From a candidate division WOR-3 bacterium (GTDB taxonomy: Bacteria > Hydrothermota > Tepidihabitantia > B3-TA06): 64,000 bases of DNA. Both the position numbers and the translations under genes were made by a program. The notes below the pieces were generated by a model. That model had not been told where the DNA came from, did no database searches, and saw only the letters and a list, made by a program, of their open reading frames with translations. The first letter of the stretch is position 1, and each line of letters opens with the position of its first letter. Location of the stretch: assembly GCA_965649265.1 (NCBI GenBank), contig CBFGKC010000006.1:114975-178974 (forward strand). The letters run 5' to 3'. Shown one piece after another: positions 2,652 through 60,295 of this stretch.

Positions 2652-4340
2652 GTGAACGTGAAACGGTTAGTGCTTTTAATAGTAATCCCAATGATAATCT
2701 TTGCAGGGGATGGATGGGTGAGGACATATGGTGGAGGTGGAGGATGTTGTGTACAATTGACTGATGATGGTGGCTATATTATTGTTGGGGTAAATAGTGA
2801 GCATCTCTCGATTCTTAAAACTGATGGAAACGGTGATACATTGTGGACGAGTTTTTTTCCTGAAGGAATTTGGAGTATCGGGAAGAGCATTACAGAAACA
2901 AGTGATGGATGTTATATTGTAACTGGGTTATTACATGGTTCGGGGATAAATGAAGTCGGTCTTTGGTTAATTAAGGTGGATTCCGTAGGCAAAACATTGT
3001 GGTCATATGTCTACGGAAGTGAGGAAGGAGCTGACGGTGAGTGTGTACAAAAAACAAACGATGGAAACTATATAATTACTGGTATTGTTAAAGGTGATCT
3101 TTGGTTGCTTAAAGCCAACCCTCAAGGTGATACCATTTGGACGAAAAGATATGGCAGAGAGGGTTACGAGGATATCGGTTTATTCCTCGAACAAACAAAG
3201 GACGGTGGTTTCGTAATTACAGGCTATAAAGATTATTCTGTTGCTCTGGGAAGCGAACCTAATTTGTGGTTATTAAGGACTAATTCTCAAGGTGATACCC
3301 TGTGGACAAAAAACTATGGTGGTTTGGGTATTTGTAAAGGGACCTGTGTTCGTCAAACCGAAGATGAGGGGTTCATAGTTACTGGTATAAACCGTTCACT
3401 CAATGACCTATGGTTAATCAAAACCAATAACGCAGGAAACATTGTTTGGTCTAAGATATATGACTGCGGTGTTAACTGGGATGCATCACCTTGTATTCAG
3501 AAAACTATTGACGGGGGGTATATTTTAATAACTATGACTCTTGCTTTTGGTGCAGGTTCCGTAGATTTCTGGTTAGCTAGAACGAATATTGACGGCGACA
3601 CTTTATGGACACGAACCTATGGAGGAACCGGTATAGATTGGCCGTATTATGTACAACAAACAAATGACGAAGGGTACATTCTCGTAGGTTCGGGGATGGG
3701 AGGGCTTATTGTGATTAAGACAGATTCTTTAGGAGATATCGCGGTGGCTGTTTCTCCCACCGATATCGGTCGACCAGACAACGGTGGCGATTATTACGGG
3801 GTTAGACCAGGTGCATATTTTACAAATTGGGGAACATTTGAAGAAGCAAAAGGCTTCTATTGTCATTGTGAAATTGCAGATATCAATGATTCAACTTTAT
3901 TCTACCATGACAGCGTTTTAATCGCTGCTCCCATTAAACCTTGGGAAACAAGATACGTATCATTTGTTCAGTGGATTGCACCTGCGATATCCAGTTTCAC
4001 GGCAACATTCTATACAACAAAAGCCAATAATCCACAGAGAAAGTCAGTTTCCTTTCGTTGGAGCGGTATCGCTGAACCCGTAACACCCGTAAGGTACCAG
4101 GCTTCTCCAGAAATGGAGATATCCTCATCAATCGGTTCGACCATCACCCTTCGCTACTCGAACTGCGCCGACGGTTTCCGGGCGTCCGTCTACGACGCGT
4201 CTGGAAGAGAAATTGACGAGATAGAATCGTCCTCAACCTCAGGCACACTAGAATGGGGGGAGTGTTACGGGCCTGGAATGTACTTTATACTTGCCGAGGG
4301 CTCGAATAGAAGCCCGACAAAGGTCGTGCTGGTCAGGTAG
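2652..4340 (+). CDS. Secreted repeat protein (about seven ~50-aa T-x-DGGYI-x-G...D-x-WL-x-K-x-D-x-GD-x-W repeats, probable beta-propeller) with T9SS-type C-terminal domain
   Basis: GTG start at 2652 or 2658 after GGAGG. Hydrophobic N-terminus KRLVLLIVIPMIIFAG. The repeat is seen 7 times. C-terminus ITLRYS...SVYDASGREI...GMYFILAEGSNRSPTKVVLVR. Confidence 0.7.
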   Translation: MNVKRLVLLIVIPMIIFAGDGWVRTYGGGGGCCVQLTDDGGYIIVGVNSEHLSILKTDGNGDTLWTSFFPEGIWSIGKSITETSDGCYIVTGLLHGSGINEVGLWLIKVDSVGKTLWSYVYGSEEGADGECVQKTNDGNYIITGIVKGDLWLLKANPQGDTIWTKRYGREGYEDIGLFLEQTKDGGFVITGYKDYSVALGSEPNLWLLRTNSQGDTLWTKNYGGLGICKGTCVRQTEDEGFIVTGINRSLNDLWLIKTNNAGNIVWSKIYDCGVNWDASPCIQKTIDGGYILITMTLAFGAGSVDFWLARTNIDGDTLWTRTYGGTGIDWPYYVQQTNDEGYILVGSGMGGLIVIKTDSLGDIAVAVSPTDIGRPDNGGDYYGVRPGAYFTNWGTFEEAKGFYCHCEIADINDSTLFYHDSVLIAAPIKPWETRYVSFVQWIAPAISSFTATFYTTKANNPQRKSVSFRWSGIAEPVTPVRYQASPEMEISSSIGSTITLRYSNCADGFRASVYDASGREIDEIESSSTSGTLEWGECYGPGMYFILAEGSNRSPTKVVLVR

Positions 4341-15040: not shown

Positions 15041-15096
15041 GTGTTACGGGGGGGGGACGGGTGTTACGGGTGGGTGTTACGGGTGGCGTTACGGGG
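15041..15096 (-). repeat. C-rich decamer array (CCCGTAACAC on the gene strand), 4 copies, overlapping the rSAM stop codon
   Basis: Plus strand reads GTGTTACGGG at 15041, 15061 and 15074, and GCGTTACGGGG at 15087. Same motif arrays occur at 48002-48082 and 58790-58832. Confidence 0.8.
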
Positions 15097-16111
15097 CAGA
15101 GAGAATCTGGGCGACGAATGGTTCGGTACCACCGCATTCATTTGCGGCGGCCCGGCACGATGCCCGGCATGTCTCGATATCCTTGCACCCTCTGCACATC
15201 TCCGGTATATCCTCAATGAACTCCTTCCTTTCGGCGGAATCCATCAGCTCCCAGAAACTTTTTTCCCTGATATTCCCGAGAACGAGCGGGGTGTGGTTGC
15301 ACGGACGCAGATTGCCTATGGAATCCACCACCGGGTAGCACTCCTCGGTTCCCGCCGAGCAGAAACCGAAGCCGAGATGCGGGTAGTTCTTAATATCCAC
15401 GAGGCAGCAGGGGATAGGTATCGATACGCTTATGGGGAACCTCTTTTCTACCGCGAACCGCTCGGCTGTGTCGAGCATGAAGAGCACATCCTGGGGGGAG
15501 GGGGAGAGTTCGTCGAGATTCTCGAGTCCCCTTCCGCCGGGATTGAAGCGGTTGAGCATCACGCCGTGCGTACCGAGGCTCCTTGCGAACTCCAGGGTTT
15601 CCCAGAGCCTTGCGAGGTTGATCTTTGTGACGATCAGGGCGACTACAATCTTCGCCTTTGTCGAAAGCACGGCCTCTATCCCTCGAACTGATTTCTCGAA
15701 GCTTCCACTGCATCCCTGCAGGTATTCGTGCTCGTCTGGCCTGTCCGATAGAAGCTGGATCTCGAAAAGAGAGATTCCAGCCCTCACAAGCGTCTTTGCG
15801 AGTTTCTTGTCGAGCGCCTGGCCGTTCGTGATGATGTTGAGCTGAGCGCCCGAGAGTGCGGCCTGAAGCGAGATGTCCACGAGATCGGGTCTCAGAGTCG
15901 GTTCTCCGCCGCTTATCGTGAAGAGTGACGGCTTCGTCTCTTTTAAGAGCTTTGCCAGCATCTCGCGGGTTTCCTTTGGGTTCAAGTCCTCATGTACAGT
16001 TTCCGGATGCTTATGCCAGATGTTGTAGCAGAAGCGGCATTTGAGATTACATCTTTGGGTTACTTCGAAGATGAGGATTTTCTGGCGGCGGTCCCTTAAC
16101 GAATCGTTCAT
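15089..16111 (-). CDS. Radical SAM enzyme with C-terminal SPASM-type auxiliary cluster domain
   Basis: CNLKCRFC (CX3CX2C) at residues 21-28. GGEPTL SAM-binding-like motif. C-terminal FCSAGTEEC...GNLRPC...LGNI...CRGCKDIETCRASC cysteine pattern. The ATG lies 1 nt after the stop of paralog P1 (TAG-C-ATG). Confidence 0.85.
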   Translation of the reverse strand: MNDSLRDRRQKILIFEVTQRCNLKCRFCYNIWHKHPETVHEDLNPKETREMLAKLLKETKPSLFTISGGEPTLRPDLVDISLQAALSGAQLNIITNGQALDKKLAKTLVRAGISLFEIQLLSDRPDEHEYLQGCSGSFEKSVRGIEAVLSTKAKIVVALIVTKINLARLWETLEFARSLGTHGVMLNRFNPGGRGLENLDELSPSPQDVLFMLDTAERFAVEKRFPISVSIPIPCCLVDIKNYPHLGFGFCSAGTEECYPVVDSIGNLRPCNHTPLVLGNIREKSFWELMDSAERKEFIEDIPEMCRGCKDIETCRASCRAAANECGGTEPFVAQILSAP

Positions 16112-17278: not shown

Positions 17279-17307
17279 GTTTTACTGTACCTCACTTTTC
17301 CGGACTG

Positions 17308-17865: not shown

Positions 17866-17929
17866 AAAATTCCTCCTTGACTGCGACTACTCCTGTTATA
17901 CAGTTGCAGGTGCAATAAATTCCCTTAAC

Positions 17930-18469: not shown

Positions 18470-18476
18470 GATACTG

Positions 18477-19016: not shown

Positions 19017-19031
19017 TGTGCCTCCGGTGAT

Positions 19032-19547
19032 TTATTCAGTTATCTCGAGGTCGATTGTTGTATCCGCTCGCTGGTCTTCATTGTCGTATTCTGTGATTTG
19101 TATGGTTACTGTATCGGGCTCGAGGTCTCCTATATACAACTTCGCGTTCACGGCATATTCATTCGTGTAGTCTCCAGGCTCTATCTTCATGACGGTGGTG
19201 TCATTCTCGAGGATACATATCACCTTTTTCAATTCAATCCCGTTATCGGCAATTGCCTTGGCGGAAACGCTAACAGTGTCGGCCCCTGCCGTAGGATTTG
19301 GTGCCACGGAGGCGTTTTCGATTCGAGGTGATTCAATTGGCAAGTAGCAGCCGGTGGGGATACAGTTGATCATGCTGGCCGCGCTCAACGCGGTAATTCC
19401 TGTCACGAAGGCTCCGAGGAAGGTCGTTTTTACCCACCTGGAAGCCCTTGGCAGTACCCCGCATTCCTCACAGCGAGAGAAGAAGTTAAAGAGTGAGGTG
19501 CCTATCCTCCTCAAGGATTCAAAGAAAAAAAACTTTGTTCTAGCCAT
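19032..19547 (-). CDS. Array paralog P6
   Basis: ATG 19547 after AAAGGAGG (track ORF extends to 19580). MARTKFFFFESLRRIGTSLFNFFSRCEECGVLPRASRWVKTTFLGAFVTGITALSAASM. TGCYLP. APNPTAGADTVSVSA. Confidence 0.85.
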   Translation of the reverse strand: MARTKFFFFESLRRIGTSLFNFFSRCEECGVLPRASRWVKTTFLGAFVTGITALSAASMINCIPTGCYLPIESPRIENASVAPNPTAGADTVSVSAKAIADNGIELKKVICILENDTTVMKIEPGDYTNEYAVNAKLYIGDLEPDTVTIQITEYDNEDQRADTTIDLEITE

Positions 19548-19569
19548 GGTTCCTCCTTTCACTGTATTA

Positions 19570-19597
19570 AATATAATCAACTTGCTCGGATTGTCAA
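19570..19597 (-). promoter_or_regulatory. Internal sigma70-type promoter TTGACA-N16-TATATT inside the array (upstream of P6)
   Basis: TTGACA 19597-19592, TATATT 19575-19570, in the 82-nt P7-P6 gap. Confidence 0.45.
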
Positions 19598-19629
19598 TCC
19601 ATGAAAATCACCTGAAATCCTGGCAGGTG

Positions 19630-20157
19630 TTATTTATCAGTAACGCGGAGAACGGTCGAGCCTATGCCCCAGCCTGAGGTTTTTGAATCGACTTTTACAA
19701 AGACCTGAGTGCTGTCCGTTTTGATTTTCTTCACGTATATGCGCCCGATGAGTTCCTCATTATTCTCGTCGAATGCGCCGTCCCTCGCTATCATCCGGAT
19801 GGTGTCTCCATCGACTATGCACTGGGCTGAGGCTATTATTTCGAGATCGCTTGCGTTTTCAAGTCTGGCTTTGGCGGTAACGGTCACCGAGTCGGCGCCT
19901 TTCGTCGGGTTAGGCTTGACTACTATCTCCGAAACCCTGGGATATACGGCCACAGGTTCGTAGCAGGTCACGAGCCCCTGATCCAGCGGAGGTTTTTTGG
20001 CGCATGCCGCAATGATGGTCAGCCACGCTCCAGCAAGCGCGAGCTTGAGCCAGCGTGATATCCTTGGCAGAGCGCTTCGTTCCTCACACCCGGTCAGAAT
20101 GGAGAACAGTGCCGAGCCTGTTCTCCTCAAAAACCTTGACAGTAACTCTCGCTTCAT
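19630..20157 (-). CDS. Array paralog P7, lipobox variant
   Basis: MKRELLSRFLRRTGSALFSILTGCEERSALPRISRWLKL. Lipobox-like IAAC. VTCYEP. KPNPTKGADSVTVTA. ATGA overlap with the P8 stop. Confidence 0.8.
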   Translation of the reverse strand: MKRELLSRFLRRTGSALFSILTGCEERSALPRISRWLKLALAGAWLTIIAACAKKPPLDQGLVTCYEPVAVYPRVSEIVVKPNPTKGADSVTVTAKARLENASDLEIIASAQCIVDGDTIRMIARDGAFDENNEELIGRIYVKKIKTDSTQVFVKVDSKTSGWGIGSTVLRVTDK

Positions 20158-20726
20158 AACGAGTCCTTTTCAGTGATAAATAGCGGTAATGAAACCAGTG
20201 CTTCTTCACCCTTGGAAGTGGCCGCGTGCACGTAGACGAAGGTGGTCCCGGGTTTAAGACCCGCGACGCTGATGCGTGCCTCAATCATCTCGACGGTATC
20301 CGAGAAGCGGCCGTCCACAGGGTACATCCGGATTTTCCTTGACGTATCAATGGCCATTACGAGCCAAGCATCCGACACGTAATTGTTCTCAAGGCCAGGT
20401 TCCAGCACCCTTGCGGTGCCCGTTATCTTGACAGTGTGCACGCCCCTTGTCGGGTTCGGGCTTGCCTGAACTACTGAGATTTCGGGATCCATCCTTCTCA
20501 TCATGTAACATGTGTGGACAGGACCGTCGCCGTCTCCTCCTGGTCCGGGTCTTGCCTTTTTCCCGCACGAGGCTATCAGGGCGACAACGAGCCCGAGTAG
20601 CGAAACCTTCAAAAAGCGCGCGGTCTTTGAAAATATTGGAGTATCCTGGCATCTCGATAGCGCATTAAACACCAGATTACCTGCATTTCTGAGAACTGCA
20701 ATCAAGCTCTTTCTCATCTTTGCCAT
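20154..20726 (-). CDS. Array paralog P8, lipobox variant
   Basis: MAKMRKSLIAVLRNAGNLVFNALSRCQD. Lipobox-like IASC, then Gly/Pro/Asp linker. HTCYM. SPNPTRGVHTVKITG. DGRFSDTVE. Confidence 0.8.
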   Translation of the reverse strand: MAKMRKSLIAVLRNAGNLVFNALSRCQDTPIFSKTARFLKVSLLGLVVALIASCGKKARPGPGGDGDGPVHTCYMMRRMDPEISVVQASPNPTRGVHTVKITGTARVLEPGLENNYVSDAWLVMAIDTSRKIRMYPVDGRFSDTVEMIEARISVAGLKPGTTFVYVHAATSKGEEALVSLPLFITEKDSL

Positions 20727-20745
20727 TCTGCCTCTCCTATCTCGT

Positions 20746-21288
20746 TTAATCTGGTTCAGTAATCACCAGTTCTAAAGATTCAATTTCAATTTGACCGGAA
20801 GAATTTTCTACCTCTAAGTATATCCATGTCGTTTCCGGCTCAAGGTCTCCAACGTAAAGTCGGCCGACTATTCTCTCCGAAGCGGCGTCGAATTTCCCGT
20901 CAATCGCCCGCATGGGGTAATATATTGTATCTCCATCCATTCTCATGCGGGCTGAGCTTATCGTGCTTTCGCCGCTGTAGTGATCGCTAATCTTTGCCGT
21001 GGCCTTGACGGTTACCGAATCGGCGCCCCTTGTAGGGTTAGGCCTTACGGAAAGTTTGGATAGTTCTATGAGGGGAGGGGGGGCGGGCTTGTAGCACATT
21101 ATGACGTCTTCCTTTGCTTCGAGCGAGAGAGCGCTCACGAGTGCCACGAAAAATCCGAGGAATGTGAGCTTCAACCATCTTGCCGCCCCGGGGAGGATGC
21201 GGCGTTCCTCGAATCCGGAAAACGTTCCGAAAAGCCTTCCGCCAATCCTTGCAAAAAAGTCTGCCAGGCGTTTTCTGAGTTCAGGCAT
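20746..21288 (-). CDS. Array paralog P9
   Basis: AAGGAGGA RBS embedded in the P10 tail codons. MPELRKRLADFFARIGGRLFGTFSGFEERRILPGAARWLKL. IMCYKP. RPNPTRGADSVTVKATAKI. DGKFDAASE. Confidence 0.85.
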   Translation of the reverse strand: MPELRKRLADFFARIGGRLFGTFSGFEERRILPGAARWLKLTFLGFFVALVSALSLEAKEDVIMCYKPAPPPLIELSKLSVRPNPTRGADSVTVKATAKISDHYSGESTISSARMRMDGDTIYYPMRAIDGKFDAASERIVGRLYVGDLEPETTWIYLEVENSSGQIEIESLELVITEPD

Positions 21289-21289
21289 A

Positions 21290-21859
21290 TCAATCCTCCT
21301 TATTCTCGTTGCTGTCCGCTTCCGGTGCGGTGATGATTAATTGCCTCCAGGTGCTTTCCGCGTTGCCTGAGTTTGTCCTCACCACTATGTAAATCCAGGT
21401 GGTCTCCGGCTTGTGATCCCCGACGTAGAGACGGCCTTCGACTGTTTCAAGGGTATCGCCGAACTTACCGTCAACCGCTTTCATCGGATATAAAAGGGTA
21501 TCTCCGGTAAGCTGCATAATTGCTTCGGAAACAGCGGTGTCACCTGAGCAATAATATGCAGATTCCAATTTTGCGGTTGCCTTGACTGTAACGGTGTCTT
21601 TTCCTGCAGTGGGGTTCGGTGTTGCCGAGACATCGAAGATACTTAAGTGAGGTTCCTCAATAGGCACGTAGCACATGATGATATCGTCGTCCGCCTTGAG
21701 CGCTGGCGCGCCCAGCAGGGTTACCAGCAATCCCAGAACCGAAAGCTTTAGCCATCTTGCCGGTCTGCGTAGGATACCGCGTTCCTCCAATCCGGACAGT
21801 ATCCCGAATAAGGAGCCGCCTATCCGTGAAGAGATGCGGGCCAGTAAGCCTTTTGTCAT
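21290..21859 (-). CDS. Array paralog P10
   Basis: The ATG directly follows the P11 stop (TAGATG). MTKGLLARISSRIGGSLFGILSGLEERGILRRPARWLKL. IMCYVP. TPNPTAGKDTVTVKATAKL. DGKFGDTLE. Tail EADSNENKED. Confidence 0.85.
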   Translation of the reverse strand: MTKGLLARISSRIGGSLFGILSGLEERGILRRPARWLKLSVLGLLVTLLGAPALKADDDIIMCYVPIEEPHLSIFDVSATPNPTAGKDTVTVKATAKLESAYYCSGDTAVSEAIMQLTGDTLLYPMKAVDGKFGDTLETVEGRLYVGDHKPETTWIYIVVRTNSGNAESTWRQLIITAPEADSNENKED

Positions 21860-22435
21860 CTACTCCTCCCTGGCAGCGCTCGAATCAGCTGCGAGCGAAT
21901 CAATCCTTGTTACGGTGTAGGACTGCCAAAGAATCTCTTCATCTTCTCTGGAACTCGTCACGTCTATAAAGAACCAGTGGGTGCCGGTATCCAGGTCGCC
22001 TGTGTAAAACATGGCCTCAAGAACCTCAAGAGTGTCGTTAAGCTTGCCGTCCACGGCCTTCATGGGAATCCTCAGGGTGTCACGCTGCCTGGAAAGCCAG
22101 GCGTTTCGGATGTAATTGTTCTCAAGGGTCGGGTCCAGAACTTTTGCAGTTACCTTTACTTTTACCGAGTCCGCTCCTCGAGTCGGATTTGGTGTGATGG
22201 ACACATCCGAAATCTTTACCTCCGGCATCCTCATGGCTACGTAACAGGTCTTAATTGTTTCTACCTCGGCGGAAAGTGCTCCGATGGCTGCGGTAAGAAA
22301 TCCAAGCAGTGAGAGCTTTAACCAGCGCGAAGCGCTGGGCACAATCCCGCGCTCTTCGAATCGCGACAGGAGTGAAAAGAGACCTCCTCCCAGCACTTCA
22401 AGAATCCTTACGACGAACCCTTTCGTTCTCGCCAC
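21860..22435 (-). CDS. Array paralog P11
   Basis: The track ORF extends to 22654. GTG 22435 (AAAGGTGGAG RBS, 1 nt after the P12 stop) gives MARTKGFVVRILEVLGGGLFSLLSRFEERGIVPSASRWLKL, matching the family. KTCYV. TPNPTRGADSVKVKV. Confidence 0.75.
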   Translation of the reverse strand: MARTKGFVVRILEVLGGGLFSLLSRFEERGIVPSASRWLKLSLLGFLTAAIGALSAEVETIKTCYVAMRMPEVKISDVSITPNPTRGADSVKVKVTAKVLDPTLENNYIRNAWLSRQRDTLRIPMKAVDGKLNDTLEVLEAMFYTGDLDTGTHWFFIDVTSSREDEEILWQSYTVTRIDSLAADSSAAREE

Positions 22436-22436
22436 G

Positions 22437-23009
22437 TCACTCCACCTTTGTCGAATCAGTCCTGATAGAATCAGGCTCCGAGACTTCAAAATAAAACCAG
22501 CTCGCTTCCAGTGCATCCTGGGATGTCTGGACGAGCATTGAGATCGAGTACTGGCCCGGTTCAAGATTTCCAACGTAAACCGTACCCTCGAGCACCTCGA
22601 GCGTGTCGTCCATCTTGCCGTCAAGTGCTTTGACCTTGAACCTCGTCGTATCACCGTCCCAGGAGAGCCAGGCGTCCTTTATGAAGTTATCCTTGATATT
22701 CGAGTACATCACCTTGGCCTGGGCCTTCACTTTCACCGAATCCGCTCCCTTCGTGGTATCAGGGGTTACGGACTTCTCTGTTATGATGACGTCGGGAATC
22801 CTCGCGACGATGTAGCAGGTGACTTCCGGATCCCTGGCTTGAAGTGAGAGTGTCGCGACTAGCGAGGCTATGATTCCCAGGGTCGAGATCTTTATCCATC
22901 TCGCGGCACGCGGCATGACGCCTTTTTCTTCTATCATTGTCAGAAAATGGAAAATTGCATCTCCCAGTTTCCCTAACAGCCTGGATAAGAGGTTGCGTGT
23001 CTTGGCCAT
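22437..23009 (-). CDS. Array paralog P12 (first gene of the operon)
   Basis: ATG 23009 after AAAGGAG (track ORF extends to 23087). MAKTRNLLSRLLGKLGDAIFHFLTMIEEKGVMPRAARWIKI. VTCYI. TPDTTKGADSVKVKA. DGKMDDTLE. Confidence 0.8.
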   Translation of the reverse strand: MAKTRNLLSRLLGKLGDAIFHFLTMIEEKGVMPRAARWIKISTLGIIASLVATLSLQARDPEVTCYIVARIPDVIITEKSVTPDTTKGADSVKVKAQAKVMYSNIKDNFIKDAWLSWDGDTTRFKVKALDGKMDDTLEVLEGTVYVGNLEPGQYSISMLVQTSQDALEASWFYFEVSEPDSIRTDSTKVE

Positions 23010-23058
23010 CGTCGCTCCTTTAATTCTCAATACAAGAAAACATCTCAAATATTCCCCA

Positions 23059-23086
23059 CAATATAAGCCCCAAAAGACAGGTGTCA
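23059..23086 (-). promoter_or_regulatory. sigma70-type promoter TTGACA-N16-TATATT driving the paralog array
   Basis: Reverse complement reads TTGACA (23086-23081), cctgtcttttggggct, TATATT (23064-23059). About 45 nt upstream of ATG 23009. Confidence 0.55.
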
Positions 23087-23111
23087 AGCATATCTTACGG
23101 GCGGATACTCA

Positions 23112-33793: not shown

Positions 33794-33820
33794 ACGCTGT
33801 CAGTAATGCAACAATCGTTT

Positions 33821-33966
33821 TGTTGCCGCAATGACACGGTCATTGCACTCCACACGGACTTGTTGCCGCAATGACACGGTCATCGCACTCCACACGGACT
33901 TGTTGCCGCAATGACGCGGTTATCGCACTCCACACAGACTTTGTTGCCGCAATGGCGCGGTCATAA
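33821..33966. repeat. 40-bp tandem direct repeat, about 3.6 copies, each with an 8-bp-stem hairpin
   Basis: Unit TGTTGCCGCAATGACACGGTCATTGCACTCCACACGGACT at 33821, 33861 and 33901, with a partial copy at 33942. GCAATGAC-ACG-GTCATTGC hairpin in each unit. No spacers. Confidence 0.9.
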
Positions 33967-46738: not shown

Positions 46739-47998
46739 ATGGAGCACATCCCACTCCTTGCGAAGCTCGGAATTATCTTCGGCGTCATCATCGTCGTCAT
46801 GGTATTCAGGCTGCCCACGTTCGTGCCAATCCTTTTGGGCGCTGTCGTCACCGGCGTCCTCTTCACCATGCCCGCGCTCGATATCGGAAGAACATTCCTC
46901 GACAGCGTAATAGACTTCTACACCATTGACACCATCCTCATCGTCTGCTTCATCGAGATTCTCGGCAAGATGATGAAGGAGCGCGGCATCCTCTCGCGAT
47001 TCGCCGGCGGCGCCGACTACCTTCTGCGGGGCTCTCGCGTGAGCGTGGTCACGATCCCCATGTTCGTCGGCCTCCTGCCAATGCCGGGCGGCGCCTACTT
47101 CACCGCACCCATGACCGAGGAGCAGATAAAACCCTACGGAATAAAGCCCGGGCTCGCGGTCTACATCAACTACTGGTTCCGGCACGTGTGGGAGTACTTC
47201 TGGCCGCTTTACCCCGGCCTCATCGTGGGCTTCGCCATCCTCAAGGACGTCACCGTCGGCTCCGTCATCATCCACCAGTCGTTCGTGACACTGCTCGCGA
47301 TTGCGGCGGGCGCCGTCATCATCTTTGCCTTCGTCAAGCGCAGGGTGGTGCGGCCGGAGCGTCTTGCGGGCAAGGGTCGTTCTTCCACAAAAGACGTGCT
47401 CTACGGCGCGTTCCCTCTACTCATCATCGTCGTCCTCATCGTGGTCACGCAGGCGCTTGGCTCCATAGTCAAGATTCCCGTTTCCTCCGTCATGCTGATC
47501 GTGCTGGTCTCTTCGTGGATATTCTACAAGGTTCCATTGAAAGGTTCAGGCAAGCTCATTCTTTCCGCGCTCGACTGGCGCGTGATCTCGCTCATGGCGT
47601 CGGTCATGTTCTTCAAGTACATGCTCGACCGTTCGTCCGCGCTGACCGGGCTCGGCCCGATGCTTGCAGGGGCCCCCTCCTCCCTCATCATCGCCATGAT
47701 AATGTTTCTTCCCTTCGTGGTCGGACTCCTCGTGGGACTCAACCAGGCGTACGTTGCCACGACGTTTCCCCTGCTCGCGCCCTTCATCGGCCATGACCCC
47801 GGACTCGTCATGCTCGCGTACGCGTTCGGGTTCTTCGGCGTGATGCTCTCGCCCTCGCACCTCTGCCTTGCCTTATCGCGCGAGTACTTCAAGGCGAGCT
47901 GGGGCTCGGTGTACAAGTGGTTGGTGCCCTCAGTGATCGCGGTCGCCGTCGTGACGTTCGCCGTGTGGTTCTTCCTGTTCCCGCATCCTAAACTATAG
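46739..47998 (+). CDS. Multi-pass integral membrane protein (permease-like, possibly DUF401-type)
   Basis: 419 aa with about 11-12 hydrophobic helices. The family call is a weak recollection only. Confidence 0.6.
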   Translation: MEHIPLLAKLGIIFGVIIVVMVFRLPTFVPILLGAVVTGVLFTMPALDIGRTFLDSVIDFYTIDTILIVCFIEILGKMMKERGILSRFAGGADYLLRGSRVSVVTIPMFVGLLPMPGGAYFTAPMTEEQIKPYGIKPGLAVYINYWFRHVWEYFWPLYPGLIVGFAILKDVTVGSVIIHQSFVTLLAIAAGAVIIFAFVKRRVVRPERLAGKGRSSTKDVLYGAFPLLIIVVLIVVTQALGSIVKIPVSSVMLIVLVSSWIFYKVPLKGSGKLILSALDWRVISLMASVMFFKYMLDRSSALTGLGPMLAGAPSSLIIAMIMFLPFVVGLLVGLNQAYVATTFPLLAPFIGHDPGLVMLAYAFGFFGVMLSPSHLCLALSREYFKASWGSVYKWLVPSVIAVAVVTFAVWFFLFPHPKL

Positions 47999-48001
47999 AT
48001 A

Positions 48002-48082
48002 CCCCCCGTAACACCCCCCCCCGTAACACCCCTCCCGTAACACACCCCCGTAACACACCCCGTAACATGCTCCGTAACACGC
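48002..48082 (+). repeat. C-rich decamer array, 6 copies of CCGTAACAC at 12-15 bp spacing
   Basis: Copies at 48006, 48021, 48035, 48048, 48060 (CCGTAACAT) and 48072. The array starts 8 nt after the stop codon at 47996-47998. Confidence 0.9.
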
Positions 48083-48996: not shown

Positions 48997-49617
48997 TCGG
49001 TTTCATATCCTCTCCATTTTGAAGCCGCGGGTATTCCCACTCTGGATAATCAGCATATTCAATAACGCCGTTCAGTCAACCTTGCAGGCTCGACGTTAAC
49101 GCCTCAAGCGTTTGCGTGAGTCAGGTCAGCCCGAATGGTGCGGGCCGACCTAAAGGTCGGCCCCTACGTTGTGTTAGTCATAAGGTGCATTTGTACCCTT
49201 CGTTCGCCCTTCGGTGGCTTCGTAGCCACTCGGGGTTGCATGTGCGGAACTACGTTCCACGAAGACTATTTCCAATTAAGGAGTATCGCCAGGGGTGATT
49301 TCGTCATCTTCGATTGCGGAAGGAACTTCCGCCCATGCGGATTCCATCCGCTCGCTCGCCAACGACAATCTAATGAATCCCCCTTGCCTTTCGGGCGTTC
49401 CCCCTTAATAAGGGGGATGTTACGGCCCCCCTTCGATAAGGGGGGAGCGGGGGGATTCTCCCGGTCTTCGTCTCTCGTTTAATGGGAGGGAAAGTCAACC
49501 CCTCCTCTTAATCCTCTTCGCAAGGGGGAGGAGGTTTTACTTTCAGTCGGTAAATTTCCATAATTTTCCTCCCGAGACCGTCCGTTTTTTGCCCCCAAAA
49601 TGCCCTCAAAACCCCGG

Positions 49618-49728
49618 TTTTGTCCATCTTTTGTCCCACTTTTGACCAGCTTTTTTTTCACGAAAATTGCCCCAAAATGCCCGATTTGTCCATCTTTTGA
49701 CCATCTTTTGTCCCACTTTTTTTATGCC
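49618..49728 (+). repeat. Two phased 11-bp T-tract arrays (TTTTGTCCATC TTTTGTCCCAC TTTTGACCAGC ...)
   Basis: 49618-49661 is near-identical to 4678-4720. Second array at 49685-49728 (ATTTGTCCATC TTTTGACCATC TTTTGTCCCAC TTTTTTTATGC). Confidence 0.85.
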
Positions 49729-49824
49729 CCACAAAATTGCTGCGCAATTTTGCGGGGACCCCATTAGAGAGATATGAATTCTAAAACATAAGTGATTGTA
49801 AAAGAATATCTTAAACAAATTCAA

Positions 49825-50016
49825 GTCGCCTTATTGGCGTCTGAGGGATGAAATCCCTGGGCTTAAGTTATTCTATAACTTCAAGATTGAAATAACTTAA
49901 ACAAGAGGTGTCACTTATTGTGACTTATGAAACAGAGTTTCATCGGCTTAAGTTGTTACATAACTTTATAATTTGAATAACTTAAGCAAATCGCCGCCAC
50001 TTATTGTGGCGGCGAT
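49825..50016. other. Tandem pair of AT-rich structured modules (three TTATT-loop hairpins separated by two CTTAAGTT...AACTTAAG long hairpins)
   Basis: GTCGCC-TTATT-GGCGTC (49825), GTCAC-TTATT-GTGAC (49910), TCGCCGCCAC-TTATT-GTGGCGGCGA (49991). Long inverted repeats at 49862-49903 and 49947-49987. Confidence 0.6.
49991..50015 (-). terminator. 10-bp GC stem hairpin downstream of 50099..51097 (probable terminator)
   Basis: TCGCCGCCAC / TTATT / GTGGCGGCGA. On the minus strand it is followed by TTTGCTTAAGTTATT. Lies 83 nt after the stop codon. Confidence 0.5.
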
Positions 50017-50098
50017 AGCTCGCATATACGCGGAGTCTTTGTGCTCATTGGGCCATCCGCGGGGGCCGACTCCATAACCCCTTGTCGGATGGTAAGTT

Positions 50099-51097
50099 CT
50101 ATTCGTTGTATCGGATGTCGTAATCCCTCGATGGCTTCGTCTCCTGCTCTGGGAACAGGTCGGTATGCACCAAAATTCCGTCCGCAAGCAGCGCCGAACC
50201 CTGCGAGTCGTGACCGTCGACTTCGTATAAGTCGCCTGATCCCGGAGTATACGCGTCATCGAGGTCGGCCTTGGTGTACACCGCTAAGAGTTCCTTGGCC
50301 TTCTGCCACGAAACGGAGCCGTGCTCCTCGCCCTGCATTGCTTCAACTATATAGGATTCCAATAACTTATGCCAATAACTCTTCATCATCGTGTGGGAGC
50401 TGAAGAGGTCGATGCCCACAACCTGGTCGCCCACGCAAACGATTACGCCTTTCATGTTTGTATTGTTTGCCGCAAGGCCTTCGAGCTTTTTCCAGTATTT
50501 GTCGCGGTCACCTTTGTAGGAACTGGAAGTGTAAATATCGTTAAATGCGCCGGTTGATGAAGTCTCGCCCATCACTTTTTCCTGGTTTTCCGCGACCTTG
50601 TTCCAGACTTCGGACTGGCTCTTGTTCGCGCGCGCGTTGGCCCTGACAGACGGAGAAACGTTGATGTCGGCCTTCGCGAACTCCTTTGAGGAACCCGACC
50701 AGCGTCCGTGCTCGGTGCAGTACACGGAAACCTCCAGCCAGCCTGAACTTGGAGGAAGGATCAGGTCGTTTTCAATCATCCGGTCCTGCTTTGCGCCGAG
50801 TATTACCTCGCCCGCCATCGCGAACACCGGGTTAGAACTTTTGTTCTTTACGAGGACGGTGTTAACCTCGCCCTCGTTTTTTTCCTTGACGACCACAAGA
50901 CCCTTATCAAGCGCGTCCTTGAGGATCATAAAGCTTTCCGCGTCGCCGGTGTAAGAGAGGGGGTAGATACGTAAGTTCTCGGCTTCAGCATAGTTAAGAA
51001 TCGTGACCTTGCCAGGAATGGCGTTTACCACAGACTCGTCTCCTGAGGTGGACCCCAGGAGAGCGAGCGCTAAAGGTATGAGAAATTTCATTTCCAA
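50099..51097 (-). CDS. Secreted hypothetical protein
   Basis: Signal MEMKFLIPLALALLGS. 332 aa. No motif I can assign with confidence. Confidence 0.55.
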   Translation of the reverse strand: MEMKFLIPLALALLGSTSGDESVVNAIPGKVTILNYAEAENLRIYPLSYTGDAESFMILKDALDKGLVVVKEKNEGEVNTVLVKNKSSNPVFAMAGEVILGAKQDRMIENDLILPPSSGWLEVSVYCTEHGRWSGSSKEFAKADINVSPSVRANARANKSQSEVWNKVAENQEKVMGETSSTGAFNDIYTSSSYKGDRDKYWKKLEGLAANNTNMKGVIVCVGDQVVGIDLFSSHTMMKSYWHKLLESYIVEAMQGEEHGSVSWQKAKELLAVYTKADLDDAYTPGSGDLYEVDGHDSQGSALLADGILVHTDLFPEQETKPSRDYDIRYNE

Positions 51098-51102
51098 CCT
51101 CC

Positions 51103-51828
51103 TTAGTTATCGGTAAGTTTGAAATTTACGGGAACCGAAATCTTGACGGCCAGCGGTTTTTCGCCCTGCATTGCCGGTGTAAAGCGCGCGTTGCGAACGG
51201 CTTCCTCCGCGGCGTTATCAAGCTCTTCATATCCGGAACTCTTCAATATTTGTGTGTCGAAGACAAGCCCTTGTTCGTCCAGTGCCGCACCGACTATGAC
51301 CAATCCCTCAACTTCCAATTTACGCATCCGTTCAGGATACTTGATATCCATTCCCCCGATAAGTTGCGGTTTTTTTGCACTTGCAGGTAAAAAGGGGACA
51401 TCGTTGATGGTTCTGATGATTCTGTCGCCGCCGATGATTCCGGGGTCAATCAAATTTGTATTTCCAGGGAGAATGGAATCAGCGGTCTGGCCAGGTGCAG
51501 CTTTCTCAATCTGGACCACTTTGTTGTCGATGGGAGGAGGAGTGTTGGGGTAGTTCTCGACGGTGATTCCGCCCCAGTCGATGATATCGCTGCCTGAAAC
51601 CGGTTTAACGTTCAGGGGTTTGATCGTAAAGCTTCCAAGGAACGCGAAAATTAGTATAGACGCTCCCAGCGCTCCAATCACTCCCACTTGCAGTCTTTCG
51701 GTTGCATGTTCGCGGATGGTGGCAATTTTTGCTTGCATTTCATCCTCCTTTGCATTGTTATACATCTTGTCCCAAGGTTTATTCCGCTCTCCATGATTTG
51801 TAATCGTGAATCGCATAAGCTTATGCAA
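51103..51828 (-). CDS. TonB-family protein (C-terminal TonB domain)
   Basis: One TM (VGVIGALGASILIFAFLGSF). C-terminal ...YPERMRKLEVEGLVIVGAALDEQGLV...NAAEEAVRNARFTPAMQGEKPLAVKISVPVNFKL. The true start may be an internal Met. Confidence 0.7.
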   Translation of the reverse strand: MHKLMRFTITNHGERNKPWDKMYNNAKEDEMQAKIATIREHATERLQVGVIGALGASILIFAFLGSFTIKPLNVKPVSGSDIIDWGGITVENYPNTPPPIDNKVVQIEKAAPGQTADSILPGNTNLIDPGIIGGDRIIRTINDVPFLPASAKKPQLIGGMDIKYPERMRKLEVEGLVIVGAALDEQGLVFDTQILKSSGYEELDNAAEEAVRNARFTPAMQGEKPLAVKISVPVNFKLTDN

Positions 51829-51845
51829 ATGCGCCCCCGGCGCTA

Positions 51846-52170
51846 GCCCTCCTCAGACCCCCTCAGACCCTCCTCAGACCCTCCTCAGACTATCCTCAGA
51901 CTATCCTCAGACTATTGGGGGCTCAACACCTTGCAGAATTCTATTCTGCGCATGCGCCTCCGGCGCTAGCCCTTTGGATAAGTAGAAATGAAATGGCGGA
52001 AGCGCAGCTTGCGCCCAGCGCCTCCGGCGCTCCTCCTTAGATCGGTAATAGTGAAATCGCAGAAACCCCATGGGCTTCTGCGCATGCGCCTCCGGCGCTA
52101 GCCCTTTGGATAAGTAGAAATGAAATGGCGGAAGCGCAGCTTGCGCCCAGCGCCTCCGGCGCTAGCCCTG
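51846..52170. repeat. Composite repeat island: 6 copies of CCTCAGA (10-11 bp period) followed by an 86-bp GC-hairpin unit duplicated at 132-bp spacing
   Basis: CCTCAGA at 51851, 51861, 51872, 51883, 51894 and 51905. An identical 86-mer occurs at 51946-52031 and 52078-52163. Related to 14790-14855. Confidence 0.9.
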
Positions 52171-56708: not shown

Positions 56709-57018
56709 AATTTGTGTCCTTGGCCCGGAGGAGCTTCTGGAACCATTCAGGGCCGTCGGGCTTGCCGGTTCGGTTGCGGACAAGAGCAGCGCCCTCGAAC
56801 GGGCAAGAACGCTCGCACAGAGTGAGTACAAGATAGTTTTTTATGACGAGGAATTCTATCCGCTCCTCAAGGATTTTCTCCTTAAGCGACCTGGCGGGGT
56901 TTTCCCAACCTACATCCCCGTTCCCTCTCTTTCCGGAGGAGAACGATACGCCATGGAGCGGCTGAGAGAGTTAATAAAAAAGGCCATAGGAGTTGACGTC
57001 TACTTGGAGGCCAAGTGA
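56692..57018 (+). CDS. atpF: V/A-type ATP synthase subunit F
   Basis: About 105 aa. [19 protein letters not shown]...IVFYDEEFY... pattern. The start is TTG 56692 or 56701, overlapping the atpC stop. Confidence 0.7.
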
Positions 57019-58787
57019 GAAAAGAAGAAACTGGTCGAATAGTAAAGGTATCGGGCCCGCTGGTCATTGCCGAGGGTATGAGTACCTCAAAGATGTACGA
57101 CGTGGTTAAAGTGTCGGACAAGCGTCTTGTTGGTGAAATTATTGGATTGTCAGGCACTCGTGCCTCGATACAGGTTTACGAGGAGACAGGCGGTATCGGC
57201 CCCGGTGAACCCGTATATCCGACATACGAACCCCTTTCCGTGGAGCTTGGTCCGGGTCTTATTGAGGCCATTTACGACGGGATTCAGCGTCCCCTGTCAG
57301 ATATAGCGGATAAAACGGGAGCCTTCATATCCCGAGGTGTTGAAGTGCCTGCGCTGCCGCGCGACAAGAAATGGGATTTCGTCCCCTCCCTCAAGAAGGG
57401 CGACAAGGTTGGGCCTGGCGATGTGCTCGGAACGGTCAAGGAAACGATACTCATCGAGCACCGTATACTGGTTCCACCGGGTGTATCCGGCGAAATCGTA
57501 GAAATATCAAAAGGCTCGTTTAACGTGGAGTCGACCGTTGCCGTCATCAAATCACCCGAAGGTAAAAGCATCGAAGTCGCAATGATGCAGCGCTGGCCGG
57601 TCAGAAAACCCCGTCCGTATATGCGCAAATATTCGCCATTTGAGATTCTATCCACGGGGCAGCGCGTTGTGGACACGTTCTTCCCGCTCGGAAAGGGTGG
57701 AACCGCATGCGTTCCAGGGCCGTTCGGATCGGGCAAGACCGTCATCCAGCATCAGCTGGCCAAGTGGGCGGATGCCGAAGTGATCGTCTACGTGGGCTGC
57801 GGCGAGCGCGGAAACGAGATGACCGATGTGCTCATAGAGTTCCCGGAACTCAAGGACCCCAAATCGGGCGAGCCCCTTATGAAACGCACGGTGCTCATCG
57901 CCAACACATCGAACATGCCGGTTGCCGCACGGGAAGCGTCGGTCTACACCGGTATTACGATAGCCGAGTACTTCCGTGACATGGGGTATTCGGTTGCCCT
58001 CATGGCCGACTCAACCTCGCGCTGGGCCGAGGCCATGCGAGAGATTTCCGGACGCCTCGAGGAGATGCCCGGTGAAGAAGGTTATCCTGCATATCTTTCC
58101 GCTCGCATCGCCGAGTTCTACGAACGCGCTGGACTTGTCGAATGTCTGGGCTCGACCTCGAAAAGAGGGGCCCTGTCCGTTATCGGCGCCGTGTCCCCTC
58201 CGGGCGGCGACCTTTCGGACCCGGTCGTTCAAGCCACCTTGCGCGTCGTAAAGGTTTTCTGGTCGCTAGAGGACAAACTGGCCTACGCCCGCCATTTTCC
58301 TGCAATTTCCTGGTTGCGCTCTTACTCCTTATATGTCGATTCGATCTCGGCAAAGCTGCGTGAAGAGATAGGAACTAACTTCCTTGAGGATACGAAGGAA
58401 GCCATGAGACTCTTGCAGGAGGAGGCCGATCTGACCGAGATAGTCCGACTCATCGGCATTGACGCACTTTCACCTAACGAACGCCTCATTATGGAAGCGG
58501 CGCGTTCGATTCGCGAGGACTTTCTGCACCAGAACGCGTTCCACGAGATTGACACGTACGCCAGCCTTGATAAACAGGCACGTATGCTTTCCCTTGTTCT
58601 CTGCTACTACAAAGAAACCAAGAAGGCACTCGAACAGGGAGCACTTCTTGAAGATCTCGTCAGCCTCCAGGTTCGTGAAAAGATTGCCCGAGCTCGCTAC
58701 CTGCCTGAGAGCGAGCGCGAAACCATCACTAAAACCGAGGAGGAGGTTATCGCTGAAATCGCTTCCTTAAAGAAGGAGGTCTCCTGA
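57015..58787 (+). CDS. atpA: V/A-type ATP synthase catalytic subunit A
   Basis: Walker [10 protein letters not shown]. ...[11 protein letters not shown]..., ...[13 protein letters not shown]... 590 aa. GTG start after GGAGG, overlapping the atpF stop. Confidence 0.9.
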
Positions 58788-60295
58788 TGCCCCGTAACAC
58801 CCGTAACACACCCAATCCCTCCCATAACACCTCCCAAACTCTTGAGGAAACCTCTGGTTTAAAGCCTACTGTGGAAGATAAACCCAAGGGTATAATCGAT
58901 TACCAGACGATTACCTCTGTTTCTGGTCCACTCCTTCTCGTTGAGGGAGTCGAAGGAGTCAAGTATGAGGAGCTTGTTGAGATATTCCTTCCCTCAGGCG
59001 AACGCCGCAGGGGAAGGGTGCTTGAGGTTAACCAGGACAAGGCGCTCATACAGATATTTGAGGGTTCCTCGGGAATCGAGATAGGCCAGACAAGGGTACG
59101 CTTTCTTGGCAAGGGCATAACCTTGGGGGTCTCCGAGGAACTTCTCGGCCGCGTATTCGACGGCCTGGGCCGCCCGCGCGACAGCTCACCCGAGCTTATC
59201 CCTGAAGAATTTCGCGACATCAACGGTCTTCCAATCAATCCCTTCGCTCGCAGCTACCCCAACGAGTTTATCGAGACAGGCATCTCCGCTATAGACGGAT
59301 TGAACACGCTAGTACGTGGGCAGAAGCTTCCTATCTTCTCCGGTTCCGGTTTGCCGCACAACCGCATGGCGGCTCAGATAGCGCGTCAGGCAAAAGTACT
59401 CGGCGCAGCGGAGGAGTTTGCGGTGGTGTTCGGCGCAATGGGCATCACGTTCGAGGAAGCCCAGTTCTTTATCGATGATTTCCGCCGTACAGGGGCCCTT
59501 GAGCGCGCGGTACTCTTTCTTAACCTTGCGGACGACCCTGCAATCGAGCGAATCGCGACACCGCGTGTTGCGTTCACCGCAGCGGAGTATCTCGCCTTTA
59601 CGAAGAATTATCACGTCCTCGTTATCCTCACAGACCTGACCAATTACTGCGAGGCCCTTCGTGAGATATCCGCCGCCCGAAAGGAGATTCCCGGTCGGCG
59701 CGGTTACCCCGGCTATCTATACACCGATCTTGCCACCATCTACGAGCGATCAGGCCGCATCAAGGATTCGACCGGTTCCATAACCCTCGTTCCCATTCTC
59801 ACCATGCCCGAGGACGACAAGACCCACCCTATTCCAGACCTTACCGGGTATATCACCGAGGGGCAGATCATCCTTTCCCGCGTACTCAATAACAAGAACG
59901 TCGCTCCGCCGGTAGACGTACTCCCCTCCCTCTCCCGTCTCAAGGACAAGGGTATAGGCAAGGGAAAAACTCGCGAGGATCACGCGGATTCGTTTAACCA
60001 GCTTTACGCCGCGTATGCACGAGGCAAGGAAGCCCAGGAACTGGCCGTGATTCTCGGTGAGGCGGCGTTGACCGATATCGACAAGCTTTACATGAAATTT
60101 GCCGAGGCGTTCGAGCGCCGCTACATTTCCCAGGGCGAGTACGAGGCTCGCAGCATCGAGGAGACACTTGATTTGGGTTGGGAGCTTTTGACCAGTCTTC
60201 CGCGTTCGGAGATGAAGCGCGTTCGGGACGAAAACCTTGCAAAGTATTACGATACCGCGTTCGCAAAATTCCAGAAGACCGGGGAGAAATCATAA
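58787..60295 (+). CDS. atpB: V/A-type ATP synthase subunit B (with about 28-35 aa repeat-encoded N-terminal extension, or alternative GTG start at 58871)
   Basis: ...[28 protein letters not shown]... core and ...[19 protein letters not shown]... The ATG overlaps the atpA TGA (TGATG) with AAGGAGG 7 nt upstream. Confidence 0.9.
58790..58832 (+). repeat. C-rich decamer array (CCGTAACAC x2 plus CCCATAACAC) immediately after the atpA stop, inside the annotated atpB 5' end
   Basis: CCGTAACAC at 58792 and 58801; CCCATAACAC at 58821. Confidence 0.85.

Follow-up and report, generated by a model that had tools for sequence, protein, structure and literature searches.

Rickettsia palindromic elements (RPEs) are palindromic repeats of about 100-150 bp that are inserted at internal surface positions (PMC10969869). 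The tandem repeat described here, from a candidate division WOR-3 bacterium, resembles RPEs in several respects. Both are dispersed, multi-copy and apparently selfish, and both occur in intergenic DNA as well as in frame and stop-free within unrelated housekeeping genes, where the added peptide appears to be tolerated; both are also open in more than one frame. However, the WOR-3 repeat is built of direct tandem units of 9-15 nt that only sometimes accompany a ~65-nt two-hairpin core, it occupies the extreme N-terminus after ATG(A) with a variable copy number, and its sequence is unrelated and belongs to a different phylum. In the atpB gene of the window, which is the whole 64,000-nt stretch of DNA analyzed, no palindromic unit of about 100-150 bp was found, and the insert consists of two direct 9-nt units that are unpaired in the predicted fold. 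A dispersed distribution with in-frame, stop-free copies inside conserved ORFs was found. In-frame RPEs are the closest analogue of the repeat.

Heterocystous cyanobacteria carry STRR sequences, lineage-specific tandem short units dispersed over many loci, most of them at gene boundaries; their units are heptamers and are described as non-coding. The WOR-3 repeat is likewise a lineage-specific, scattered family of short tandem units located mostly by gene boundaries, but it differs in its sequence, its variable C-run, its precise adjacency to stop codons, start codons and -35 boxes, and its coding role in several genes. The term STRR is used in PMC4748335 and PMC2670836. A different comparison is offered by the V-ATPase B subunits of eukaryotes: yeast Vma2 begins to align at its residue 24 and the human and bovine B2 proteins at their residue 45, matching residue 35-37 of the atpB product. 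The eukaryotic proteins and the window's protein thus share extra residues ahead of the same beta-barrel domain. However, the eukaryotic extensions are conserved within lineages, whereas the tail of the window's type is hypervariable even at about 90% identity and derives from a genomic repeat. The eukaryotic extensions have been reported to bind actin.

The features of the atpA-atpB junction in the window are as follows.

57015-58787, forward strand: atpA, V/A-ATPase catalytic subunit A (Pfam ATP-synt_ab_N, Xtn, ATP-synt_ab and VA_C)
58773-58779, forward strand: Shine-Dalgarno (SD) sequence AAGGAGG of atpB, within the last atpA codons (KKEV), 7 nt 5' of the ATG
58787-60295, forward strand: atpB, V/A-ATPase non-catalytic subunit B, 502 aa counting the extension (Pfam)
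58787-58891, forward strand: N-terminal extension of 35 codons, absent from solved prokaryotic B subunits
58791-58809, forward strand: two perfect tandem CCCGTAACA units with a period of 9 nt, or 3 codons, encoding RNT-RNT (TRF, motif search)
58810-58845, forward strand: C-rich, G-poor stretch that includes one degenerate unit (sequence, motif search)
58871-58873, forward strand: in-frame GTG at codon 29, proposed at first as an alternative start, unlikely to be used

The atpB product is subunit B (NtpB/AtpB) of a V/A-type ATPase by domain content, similarity to solved structures and operon context. Its Pfam domains are ATP-synt_ab_N (PF02874, residues 42-108), ATP-synt_ab (PF00006, 165-383, E = 1.3e-77) and ATP-synt_VA_C (PF22919, 388-488). 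Residues 36-488 match Enterococcus hirae NtpB (3vr2_D) with E = 2.5e-218, and the B subunits of T. thermophilus and archaea match with E about 1e-175. Translated atpA holds the Walker A motif GPFGSGKT, and comparison of the two translations places a degenerate P-loop, FSGSGLPHN, at the equivalent site of B. By start coordinate, the operon runs C/d (55722), F (56692), A (57015), B (58787) and D (60375). The atpA TGA (58785-58787) and the atpB ATG (58787-58789) overlap as TGATG, and the SD duplex for this ATG, formed with ACCUCCUUA, reaches -12.4 kcal/mol, ranking second among 30 window genes. The overlap, the AAGGAGG and the location of the conserved core were all placed accurately by the original prediction: the core begins at about residue 36, where the NtpB alignment starts, and the Pfam beta-barrel follows from residue 42. 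Most homologues begin with M[IL]KEY, 10 residues ahead of the GPL motif.

The extension is free of stops in frame 0, and frames 1 and 2 contain one and five stops, respectively. TRF describes 58791-58809 as 2.1 copies with a period of 9 and 100% matches, and CCGTAACAC is found at 58792-58800 and again at 58801-58809. Further downstream, CCATAACAC at 58822-58830 is a one-mismatch copy of the repeat 9-mer, and by its sequence the whole 58810-58845 stretch is probably a decayed part of the atpB array. In an AF2 model of mediocre overall quality (mean pLDDT 65.6), residues 1-34 have pLDDT values around 30 and form no secondary structure, which lends weak support to the predicted disorder of the tail.

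The repeat follows the consensus (C3-9)GTAACAC, the family being also written as GTGTTACGGG repeats, and forms arrays at three sites of the window. Two of them lie outside the ATPase operon.

48001-48080, forward strand: intergenic array of six units with periods of 15, 14, 13, 12 and 12, between convergent genes
15033-15096, reverse strand: array of four units (TRF, motif search)

The first begins 3 nt past the TAG of the ORF at 46739-47998, and the TAA in the first unit of the second is the stop codon of the ORF at 15089-16111. When one mismatch at most is allowed, the 9-mer matches the window 33 times, compared with 9.6 +/- 3.2 matches in shuffled sequences (maximum 18; 33 or more in 0/100 shuffles). 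The repeat is a genuine dispersed family in the window, in agreement with its original description as dispersed. The accompanying term decamer does not hold for atpB, whose unit is 9 nt long; intergenic units measure 10-15 nt because the C-run is variable.

The family extends through the relatives of this bacterium. At least 61 arrays were surveyed in 37 sources, comprising the window and related loci taken as 8-kb pieces. Arrays within 0-7 nt of stop codons are found in the window and in relatives, and the reverse complement of TTGACA is adjoined in 15 of 83 cases; many arrays stand in the opposite orientation beside -35 boxes. A general rule that arrays always follow stop codons was discarded, as it is true of about a dozen of the 61 arrays listed, the others adjoining the TTGACA reverse complement or lying elsewhere. 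In five conserved gene families the array directly follows ATG(A). Besides atpB, they encode an ABC ATPase, a PD-(D/E)XK nuclease, a CDP-alcohol phosphatidyltransferase and a PQQ/BamB-like protein, and in these four the arrays are in frame with copy numbers that vary in multiples of 3. Separately, the spacing of arrays to ATGA, stop codons and TTGACA is near zero, an observation that mere tolerance explains incompletely. Some arrays flank the ~65-nt core with two short hairpins, which is missing from the window's atpB. The consensus fold of nine cores has two short hairpins, and its 2 covarying pairs do not make a convincing case for a structured RNA. A search of Rfam 15 with seven element-bearing loci returned no relevant match to the arrays or the hairpin core at E <= 1; the lone match above gathering was a tRNA elsewhere in one locus, and four weak chance matches fell far below gathering. 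Nothing relevant on repeats in Stahlbacteria or WOR-3 was found in the literature searched. The repeat family is undescribed and lineage-wide in WOR-3/Stahlbacteria.

Is the extension part of the protein? Eleven atpA-atpB junctions were compared (the window, L141, L001, L128, L002, L136, L003, L129, L004, L007 and L005), which are phylogenetically related and not fully independent. The atpB ATG overlaps or adjoins the atpA stop codon in all 11, and GGAGG stands 6-9 nt 5' of it in 10/11, L128 having GGAGA. The ATG-to-core linkers span 19-50 codons, and none of them contains an in-frame stop; their TAA-containing frame holds 1-10 stops. The rough joint chance of such open linkers is about 1e-11, a value that overestimates the significance because the loci are related. 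All 11 linkers are in frame with the core although they have 10 different lengths, and the one frame in which the repeat unit holds TAA is never used by atpB.

The original prediction had also offered the opposite reading, in which the repeat is an untranslated spacer and GTG 58871 the ancestral start. Repeat and linker would then be skipped, ribosomes would re-initiate at this GTG or at a non-canonical codon by the core, and the long ORF would be a stop-poor accident. C-rich, T-poor linkers are indeed poor in stops, each linker remaining stop-free in 12-62% of its shuffles, and the tail sequence is unconstrained; moreover, codon 29 of the window's ORF is the in-frame GTG, and in L129 a gene caller favored an ATG located one codon ahead of QGIIDYQ. 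However, GTG 58871 lacks an SD, its duplex reaching -2.2 kcal/mol (the poor SD had been noted at the outset) against -12.4 kcal/mol for the ATG, and it is not conserved, so that it was rejected as the true start; none of the aligned orthologues starts at the equivalent position, as the refutation named in the original prediction would require. Downstream of the junction ATG, 7/11 linkers reach the core without any in-frame ATG, GTG or TTG. This, the uniform frame across diverse lengths and the conserved junction SD and ATG make the spacer reading very unlikely. In-frame starts near the core are present in L129 and L007, and dual initiation may occur in these two loci and in the window. Two short proteins that look like counter-examples are artefacts: in P0127 (471 aa) the gene caller picked an internal ATG although the long ORF is open, and in P0136 (450 aa) a run of N breaks the array. 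The comparison of junctions argues that the extension is very probably translated from ATG 58787, as the predicted translated tail requires.

The periods of the arrays bear on the same question. Eleven arrays follow a start codon, are read as RNT and lead into an ORF of 100 codons or more, and 39/39 of their periods are multiples of 3, compared with 90/136 in other arrays; the test is partly circular because the open-ORF requirement already removes most frame-shifting arrays. In intergenic arrays, periods of 7, 8, 10, 11 and 13 occur as well. Among B proteins clustered at 90% identity, copy-number variants are all in frame, one example being MTPHNTRNTRNTSLK; a copy-number difference of 9 residues, again in frame, separates P0002 from P0121, and L128/P0124 carries a complete array-hairpin core-array element in frame within atpB (RTPSGHSHNYSELALRSQGNNTRNT). 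A variable-copy tandem repeat just 3' of the start codon, whose copy number differs between close relatives, stands at the classical position of a phase-variation contingency locus, where slippage, whether of the repeat or of its C-run, would frameshift atpB on and off. However, copy-number changes that shift the frame were not found in the 5'-end arrays; the changes keep the frame at all 11 assembled junctions, and the gene stays on. At the start of atpB the C-runs measure just 4-6 nt, the homopolymer tracts of classical contingency loci are longer, and the B subunit of the V-ATPase is a core housekeeping protein. Since every variant keeps the frame, we dismiss phase variation, which is barely credible.

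A further alternative is that the array, at atpB and at other genes, is useful as RNA and the peptide a by-product. An unfoldable G-poor, C/A-rich stretch might open the coupled start and increase initiation, or an untranslated rut-like site might load Rho and so impose polarity. In favor of such a role, the minimum-energy fold of 58755-58880 leaves the array unpaired, arrays begin exactly after ATG(A) in the five gene families, and those near stop codons begin 0-7 nt away. The 48001-48080 array, with six C-rich units spaced at 12-15 nt over 80 nt, would resemble what a Rho hexamer binds; judged by sequence, it fits in composition, length and position a rut site, which is C-rich, G-poor, unstructured and untranslated RNA of roughly 60-80 nt past a stop codon. 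The atpB array, set against the same rut features, is short and lies inside an ORF. Furthermore, the region folds like its shuffles (z = 0.02), and many -35-box arrays stand in the opposite orientation, for which a role of the C-rich strand as RNA makes little sense. The array also appears dispensable, because the relatives L004, L005 and L007, with cores 87-88% identical, have tails without an array. On this evidence, an RNA function of the array at the 5' ends of atpB and the other genes is unlikely. SD sequestration or another special RNA structure was likewise rejected, since 58755-58880 and the L001 junction are not more strongly folded than their shuffles (z about 0); the sole pairing that involves the atpB SD is a small local hairpin with GCUUCCUU. 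At the level of the family, (C)nGTAACAC arrays might be a lineage-specific cis-element that marks gene boundaries, as a binding site for a putative DNA- or RNA-binding factor or as a Rho-loading module, with RNT tails on V-ATPase B and at least four other conserved proteins as a tolerated side-effect. We hold this improbable; if true, it would reveal a regulatory system so far undescribed.

What, then, does the tail do? A tail of 18-40 residues is present throughout the clade, including relatives that lack a perfect repeat copy and begin with decayed-looking units (MTPHN, encoded by ATGACNCCCCACAAC). The extension thus occurs in orthologues, as the original prediction proposed to check; however, because the tail is found clade-wide even where no perfect copy exists, the repeat is not demonstrably the creator of the tail in this genome, and that prediction is supported in part. 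P0129, the closest relative at 92% overall identity, has a tail that by eye looks largely different from that of the window. Because no sequence, length or charge is conserved, the tail is most likely neutral cargo, that is, tolerated selfish or slippage DNA and no functional module; this absence of conservation is the one argument for neutrality.

Thus, we propose that atpB likely starts at the junction ATG and bears a repeat-built, unstructured, neutral tail that derives from a lineage-specific tandem repeat. Translational coupling at the ATG overlapping the atpA stop, aided by the strong SD, would begin synthesis at 58787, and because translation begins there, the whole 35-codon linker, including its two CCCGTAACA units, would become protein. 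In subunit B, the resulting unstructured tail would sit ahead of the beta-barrel 'crown' domain. The variable-copy repeat may occupy permissive sites, namely after stops, after starts and upstream of -35 boxes, and at the atpA/atpB junction the site after a stop would at the same time be the site after a start. Within atpB, only the stop-free frame (CGT-AAC-ACN, read as RNT) with periods in multiples of 3 would survive.

For annotation, this reading would make the long ORF the correct gene model, and models that are trimmed, as in P0127, or stopped at a gap, as in P0136, would give wrong starts. The exact adjacency of arrays to stop codons, start codons and -35 boxes is the part most deserving of follow-up. 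For the ATPase, the finding would mean that a core subunit of a rotary enzyme tolerates on its crown a tail of 20-50 residues whose sequence is arbitrary. For the WOR-3/Stahlbacteria lineage, it would mean that an undescribed tandem-repeat family repeatedly turns coding at the first codons of unrelated genes, and this would be a second, mechanistically different case of selfish DNA in protein-coding genes beside the Rickettsia palindromic elements.

The atpB gene of the window starts within the atpA stop codon, downstream of a Shine-Dalgarno (SD) sequence, and carries the repeat in its first codons. This arrangement, described in the original prediction, was confirmed on the sequence by TRF and a motif search.

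57015..58787, + strand: atpA, ending in TGA
58773-58779, + strand: SD AAGGAGG, 7 nt upstream of the atpB ATG
58787, + strand: atpB start ATG, overlapping the atpA stop as TGATG
58791-58809: two perfect tandem CCCGTAACA units (TRF period 9), in the first codons of atpB
58822-58830: CCCGTAACA copy with one mismatch, within the early atpB codons

The atpB product is a bona fide B subunit, unexceptional within the V/A-ATPase B family, and its gene lies within a C-F-A-B-D operon. Its conserved part extends from about residue 36, where the alignment with E. hirae NtpB begins, and the Pfam beta-barrel begins at residue 42. Most of the best 120 AtpB homologues start with M[IL]KEY, only 10 residues ahead of the GPL motif.

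Is the N-terminal tail of residues 1-35 translated? We retrieved DNA spanning the atpA-atpB junction from the closest relatives and aligned 11 junctions. Conserved features are the end of atpA, an ATG overlapping or abutting its stop, the core from GG-ATH-ATH-GAY-TAC-CAG on and, in 10 of the 11 junctions, GGAGG (GGAGA in locus L128). The intervening stretch from ATG to core is hypervariable, with 10 different lengths of 19 to 50 codons, and in every junction it shares the reading frame of the core and lacks stops; the CCG-TAA frame of these linkers contains 1-10 stops. In seven junctions this linker lacks any in-frame ATG, GTG or TTG after the junction ATG, and those genomes cannot make the B protein without a tail. 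The conserved ATG, the open frame and the missing alternative starts support the proposal that a repeat insertion is read as an N-terminal tail. The other proposal, an untranslated spacer followed by a start at GTG 58871, is disfavored because this GTG has no SD (-2.2 kcal/mol) and no start codon occupies the equivalent position in the orthologues of the aligned junctions. The SD of the junction ATG (-12.4 kcal/mol) is the second-strongest among 30 window genes tested. On this comparative evidence, the atpB tail is very probably translated.

Two homologous proteins were considered as tail-less exceptions and rejected. For P0127, which starts with MQGIIDYQ, the gene caller took an internal ATG of a reading frame that is open all the way from the junction ATG, and the locus of P0136 (450 aa) has its array cut by a run of N. 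In genome CAZUXE01 (L144, 1305-1404), 100 N break the atpB array and the annotation places the gene start inside the beta-barrel; the arrays both fragment assemblies and lead gene callers astray.

The clade with cores at 85-92% identity to that of the window has tails of 18-40 residues throughout, against 0-12 additional N-terminal residues in WOR-3 B subunits further away. Tails differ among AtpB proteins grouped at 90% identity (e.g. MTPHNTRNTRNTSLK... and MPRTRNTPRNTSPHNTPSKKK...), and P0002 and P0121 are nine residues of RNT-type (Arg-Asn-Thr) repeat apart. P0129, the closest relative of the window protein (92% identity overall), has one unit versus two in the window, and its tail looks by eye largely unlike the window's. 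Loci L003 and L005/L006, from genomes in which no arrays were found, have tails without perfect units, several of which still open with a degenerate unit (MTPHN/MSPHN = ATGNCNCCCCACAAC). Judging from these sequences, the atpB tail may be a decayed array in whole or in part.

Genes other than atpB also have an array directly after the start codon. In a metagenome scan and in the genome loci, arrays stand at the first codons of four further gene families, namely an ABC-transporter ATPase, a PD-(D/E)XK nuclease (901 aa), a CDP-alcohol phosphatidyltransferase and a PQQ/BamB-like beta-propeller protein. Unit number varies among orthologues in each of the four families, always by multiples of 3 nt. 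In 11 start-codon arrays that lead, in the RNT frame (CGT-AAC-ACN), into ORFs of 100 codons or more, 39 of 39 periods are multiples of 3, compared with 90 of 136 in the remaining arrays, a contrast partly built into the selection because the open-ORF requirement drops most frame-shifting arrays. A phase-variation locus was ruled out, as all variants are in frame.

The repeat is dispersed, as originally predicted. The window contains 33 matches to the 9-mer with at most one mismatch (9.6 +/- 3.2 in shuffles) and two arrays besides that of atpB.

48001-48080, + strand: array starting 3 nt past the TAG of ORF 46739..47998
15033-15096, - strand: array whose first unit provides the TAA stop of ORF 15089..16111

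A two-unit copy, CCCGTAACACCCGTAAGG, lies at 4077-4094 (+) inside ORF 2652..4340, where it is read in the other stop-free frame as PVTPVR, and the same ORF has one inverted copy 180 nt further downstream (4262-4270, -). Among the matches listed in a three-unit pattern scan over species-representative genomes, arrays occur in many contigs of several genomes, including the Candidatus Stahlbacteria MAGs SOJW01, DAOVCF01 and JAUVJT01, the WOR-3 MAGs JAYELY01 (the genome of P0003) and JAGMDF01, and CAZUXE01. The related loci and the window, 37 sources in all, hold 61 arrays of at least two units with periods of 7 to 27 nt; 9, 12, 15 and 18 are commonest, and 7, 8, 10, 11 and 13 are also common. No description of the (C)nGTAACAC family was found in Rfam or the Stahlbacteria/WOR-3 repeat literature.

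The arrays take three placements. First, about a dozen, counted on a crude map of long same-strand ORFs, directly follow a same-strand stop (-6 to 18 nt from its end), all three window arrays among them. Second, arrays come straight after a start codon (ATGA-CCCGTAACAC) and share the frame of a real gene. Third, 15 of 83 arrays, at no fewer than 9 distinct loci, lie in the opposite orientation 0-11 nt from TTGACA; a -10-like box follows after another 16-18 nt, and a gene start after that. These include L073 (7072), L092 (three sites), L123 (two sites), L138 (3872) and one orthologous locus, L010/L063/L101/L107/L133/L135. On the G-rich strand, such arrays end 0-11 nt before TTGACA, where a UP element or activator site would be, and the gene often starts with almost no leader. 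The trinucleotide most enriched just ahead of arrays is TGA (7 observed, 0.73 expected).

Some arrays flank a ~65-nt core, CCGTACCCCTTCGGGGCATTCTCAYTATTAYTCGGAGCTTGCGCTCCG..CAAGGAMATAACA, with two short tetraloop-type hairpins (CCCC-TTCG-GGGG and GGAGC-TTGC-GCTCC) and CCCGTAACAC arrays on both sides. The core matches no Rfam family, and 9 copies of it show only 2 covarying pairs.

L128, 9257-9335: core site
L007, 2557-2753: two cores directly past the atpB stop
L020, 3505-3600: core site
L088, 2400-2590, - strand: core site
L124, 1388-1500: core site

The core is open in two of three frames, and the complete array-core-array is read in frame in proteins P0124 and P0125 (..RTPSGHSHNYSELALRSQGNNTRNT..), as confirmed inside atpB on L128 DNA.

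We propose that a ribosome ending atpA would re-initiate at the overlapping ATG with its strong SD and would read through the array in the sole frame permitted by selection. The last atpA codons, GCTTCCTTAAAGAAGGAGGT (58761-58780), could fold into an 8-bp hairpin in which the atpB SD pairs with sequence upstream of it, and L141 and L007 share this hairpin-capable sequence; the hairpin would fit unmasking by the atpA-translating ribosome, with a fold no better than shuffles. The RNA around the atpB start shows no unusual structure relative to shuffles (z about 0), and its predicted fold leaves the array unpaired. The 35-residue tail is unconserved in sequence, length and net charge and is modelled without secondary structure (pLDDT around 30, in a model that is mediocre overall with a mean of 65.6). 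In established V/A-ATPase structures the crown of the A3B3 head is made up of the N-terminal beta-barrels, and a free tail on the crown should not hinder catalysis. Because the tail is unconserved and unstructured in the model and the RNA is not unusually structured, we interpret it as the tolerated cargo of a repeat that is either slippage-prone or mobile. Tolerance alone does not fully explain why the arrays abut ATGA, stop codons and TTGACA so exactly. This leaves room for a sequence-seeded origin, given that TGAC, TAAC and GTCAAC resemble the GTAAC of the unit, and for a cis-regulatory function as a candidate reading of the abutment.

The window holds further repeats. The gene-free, repeat-filled region 48997-50098 (1.1 kb; repeats at 49380-50100) contains two 66-nt units (49593-49724) built of 11-nt TTTTGTCCA/TTTTGACCA repeats, which we take to resemble DnaA boxes; a third unit lies at 4653-4718. 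The cumulative GC skew minimum falls at 48-52 kb, parA/parB lie at 62.6 kb, and the region is a possible replication origin. A second family of 64-132-nt units (GCGCCTCCGGCGCTAGCCC...GGCGGAAGCGCAGCTTGCGCCCA), with two 88-nt copies 100% identical, occupies the intergenic sites 51809-52169 and 14720-14855, one of which adjoins the 15033-15096 array. A 40-nt unit (TTGTTGCCGCAATGACACGGTCATCGCACTCCACACGGAC) is repeated 3.6 times at 33820-33964 (93% matches). Intergenic 38-nt hairpins without a T-run (ACCCCAAG...CTTGGGGACCCCG; 11692, 33363, 44348 and 49726) may be terminator-like or REP-like. At 16113-23087 (-), about 10 tandem paralogous ORFs (175-265 aa, spaced around 545-610 nt) share conserved blocks of 51-58 nt and constitute a tandemly amplified gene family. 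The starts at 55722 (the first gene of the V-ATPase operon), 46739, 40053, 61271 and 2652 lack an SD and have a TATAAT-like hexamer only ~2-10 nt upstream, which suggests leaderless or near-leaderless mRNAs.

In how the phenomenon works, the atpB repeat is like the in-frame Rickettsia palindromic elements and other intragenic MITEs (PMC10969869). However, those elements are 100-150-bp palindromes, whereas the repeat consists of direct 9-nt tandem units and falls outside their structural definition. It resembles cyanobacterial STRR arrays as a lineage-specific dispersed tandem repeat, and its intergenic arrays match a rut site in composition and position, as candidates. The weight of the finding lies mostly in the repeat family rather than in the ATPase.
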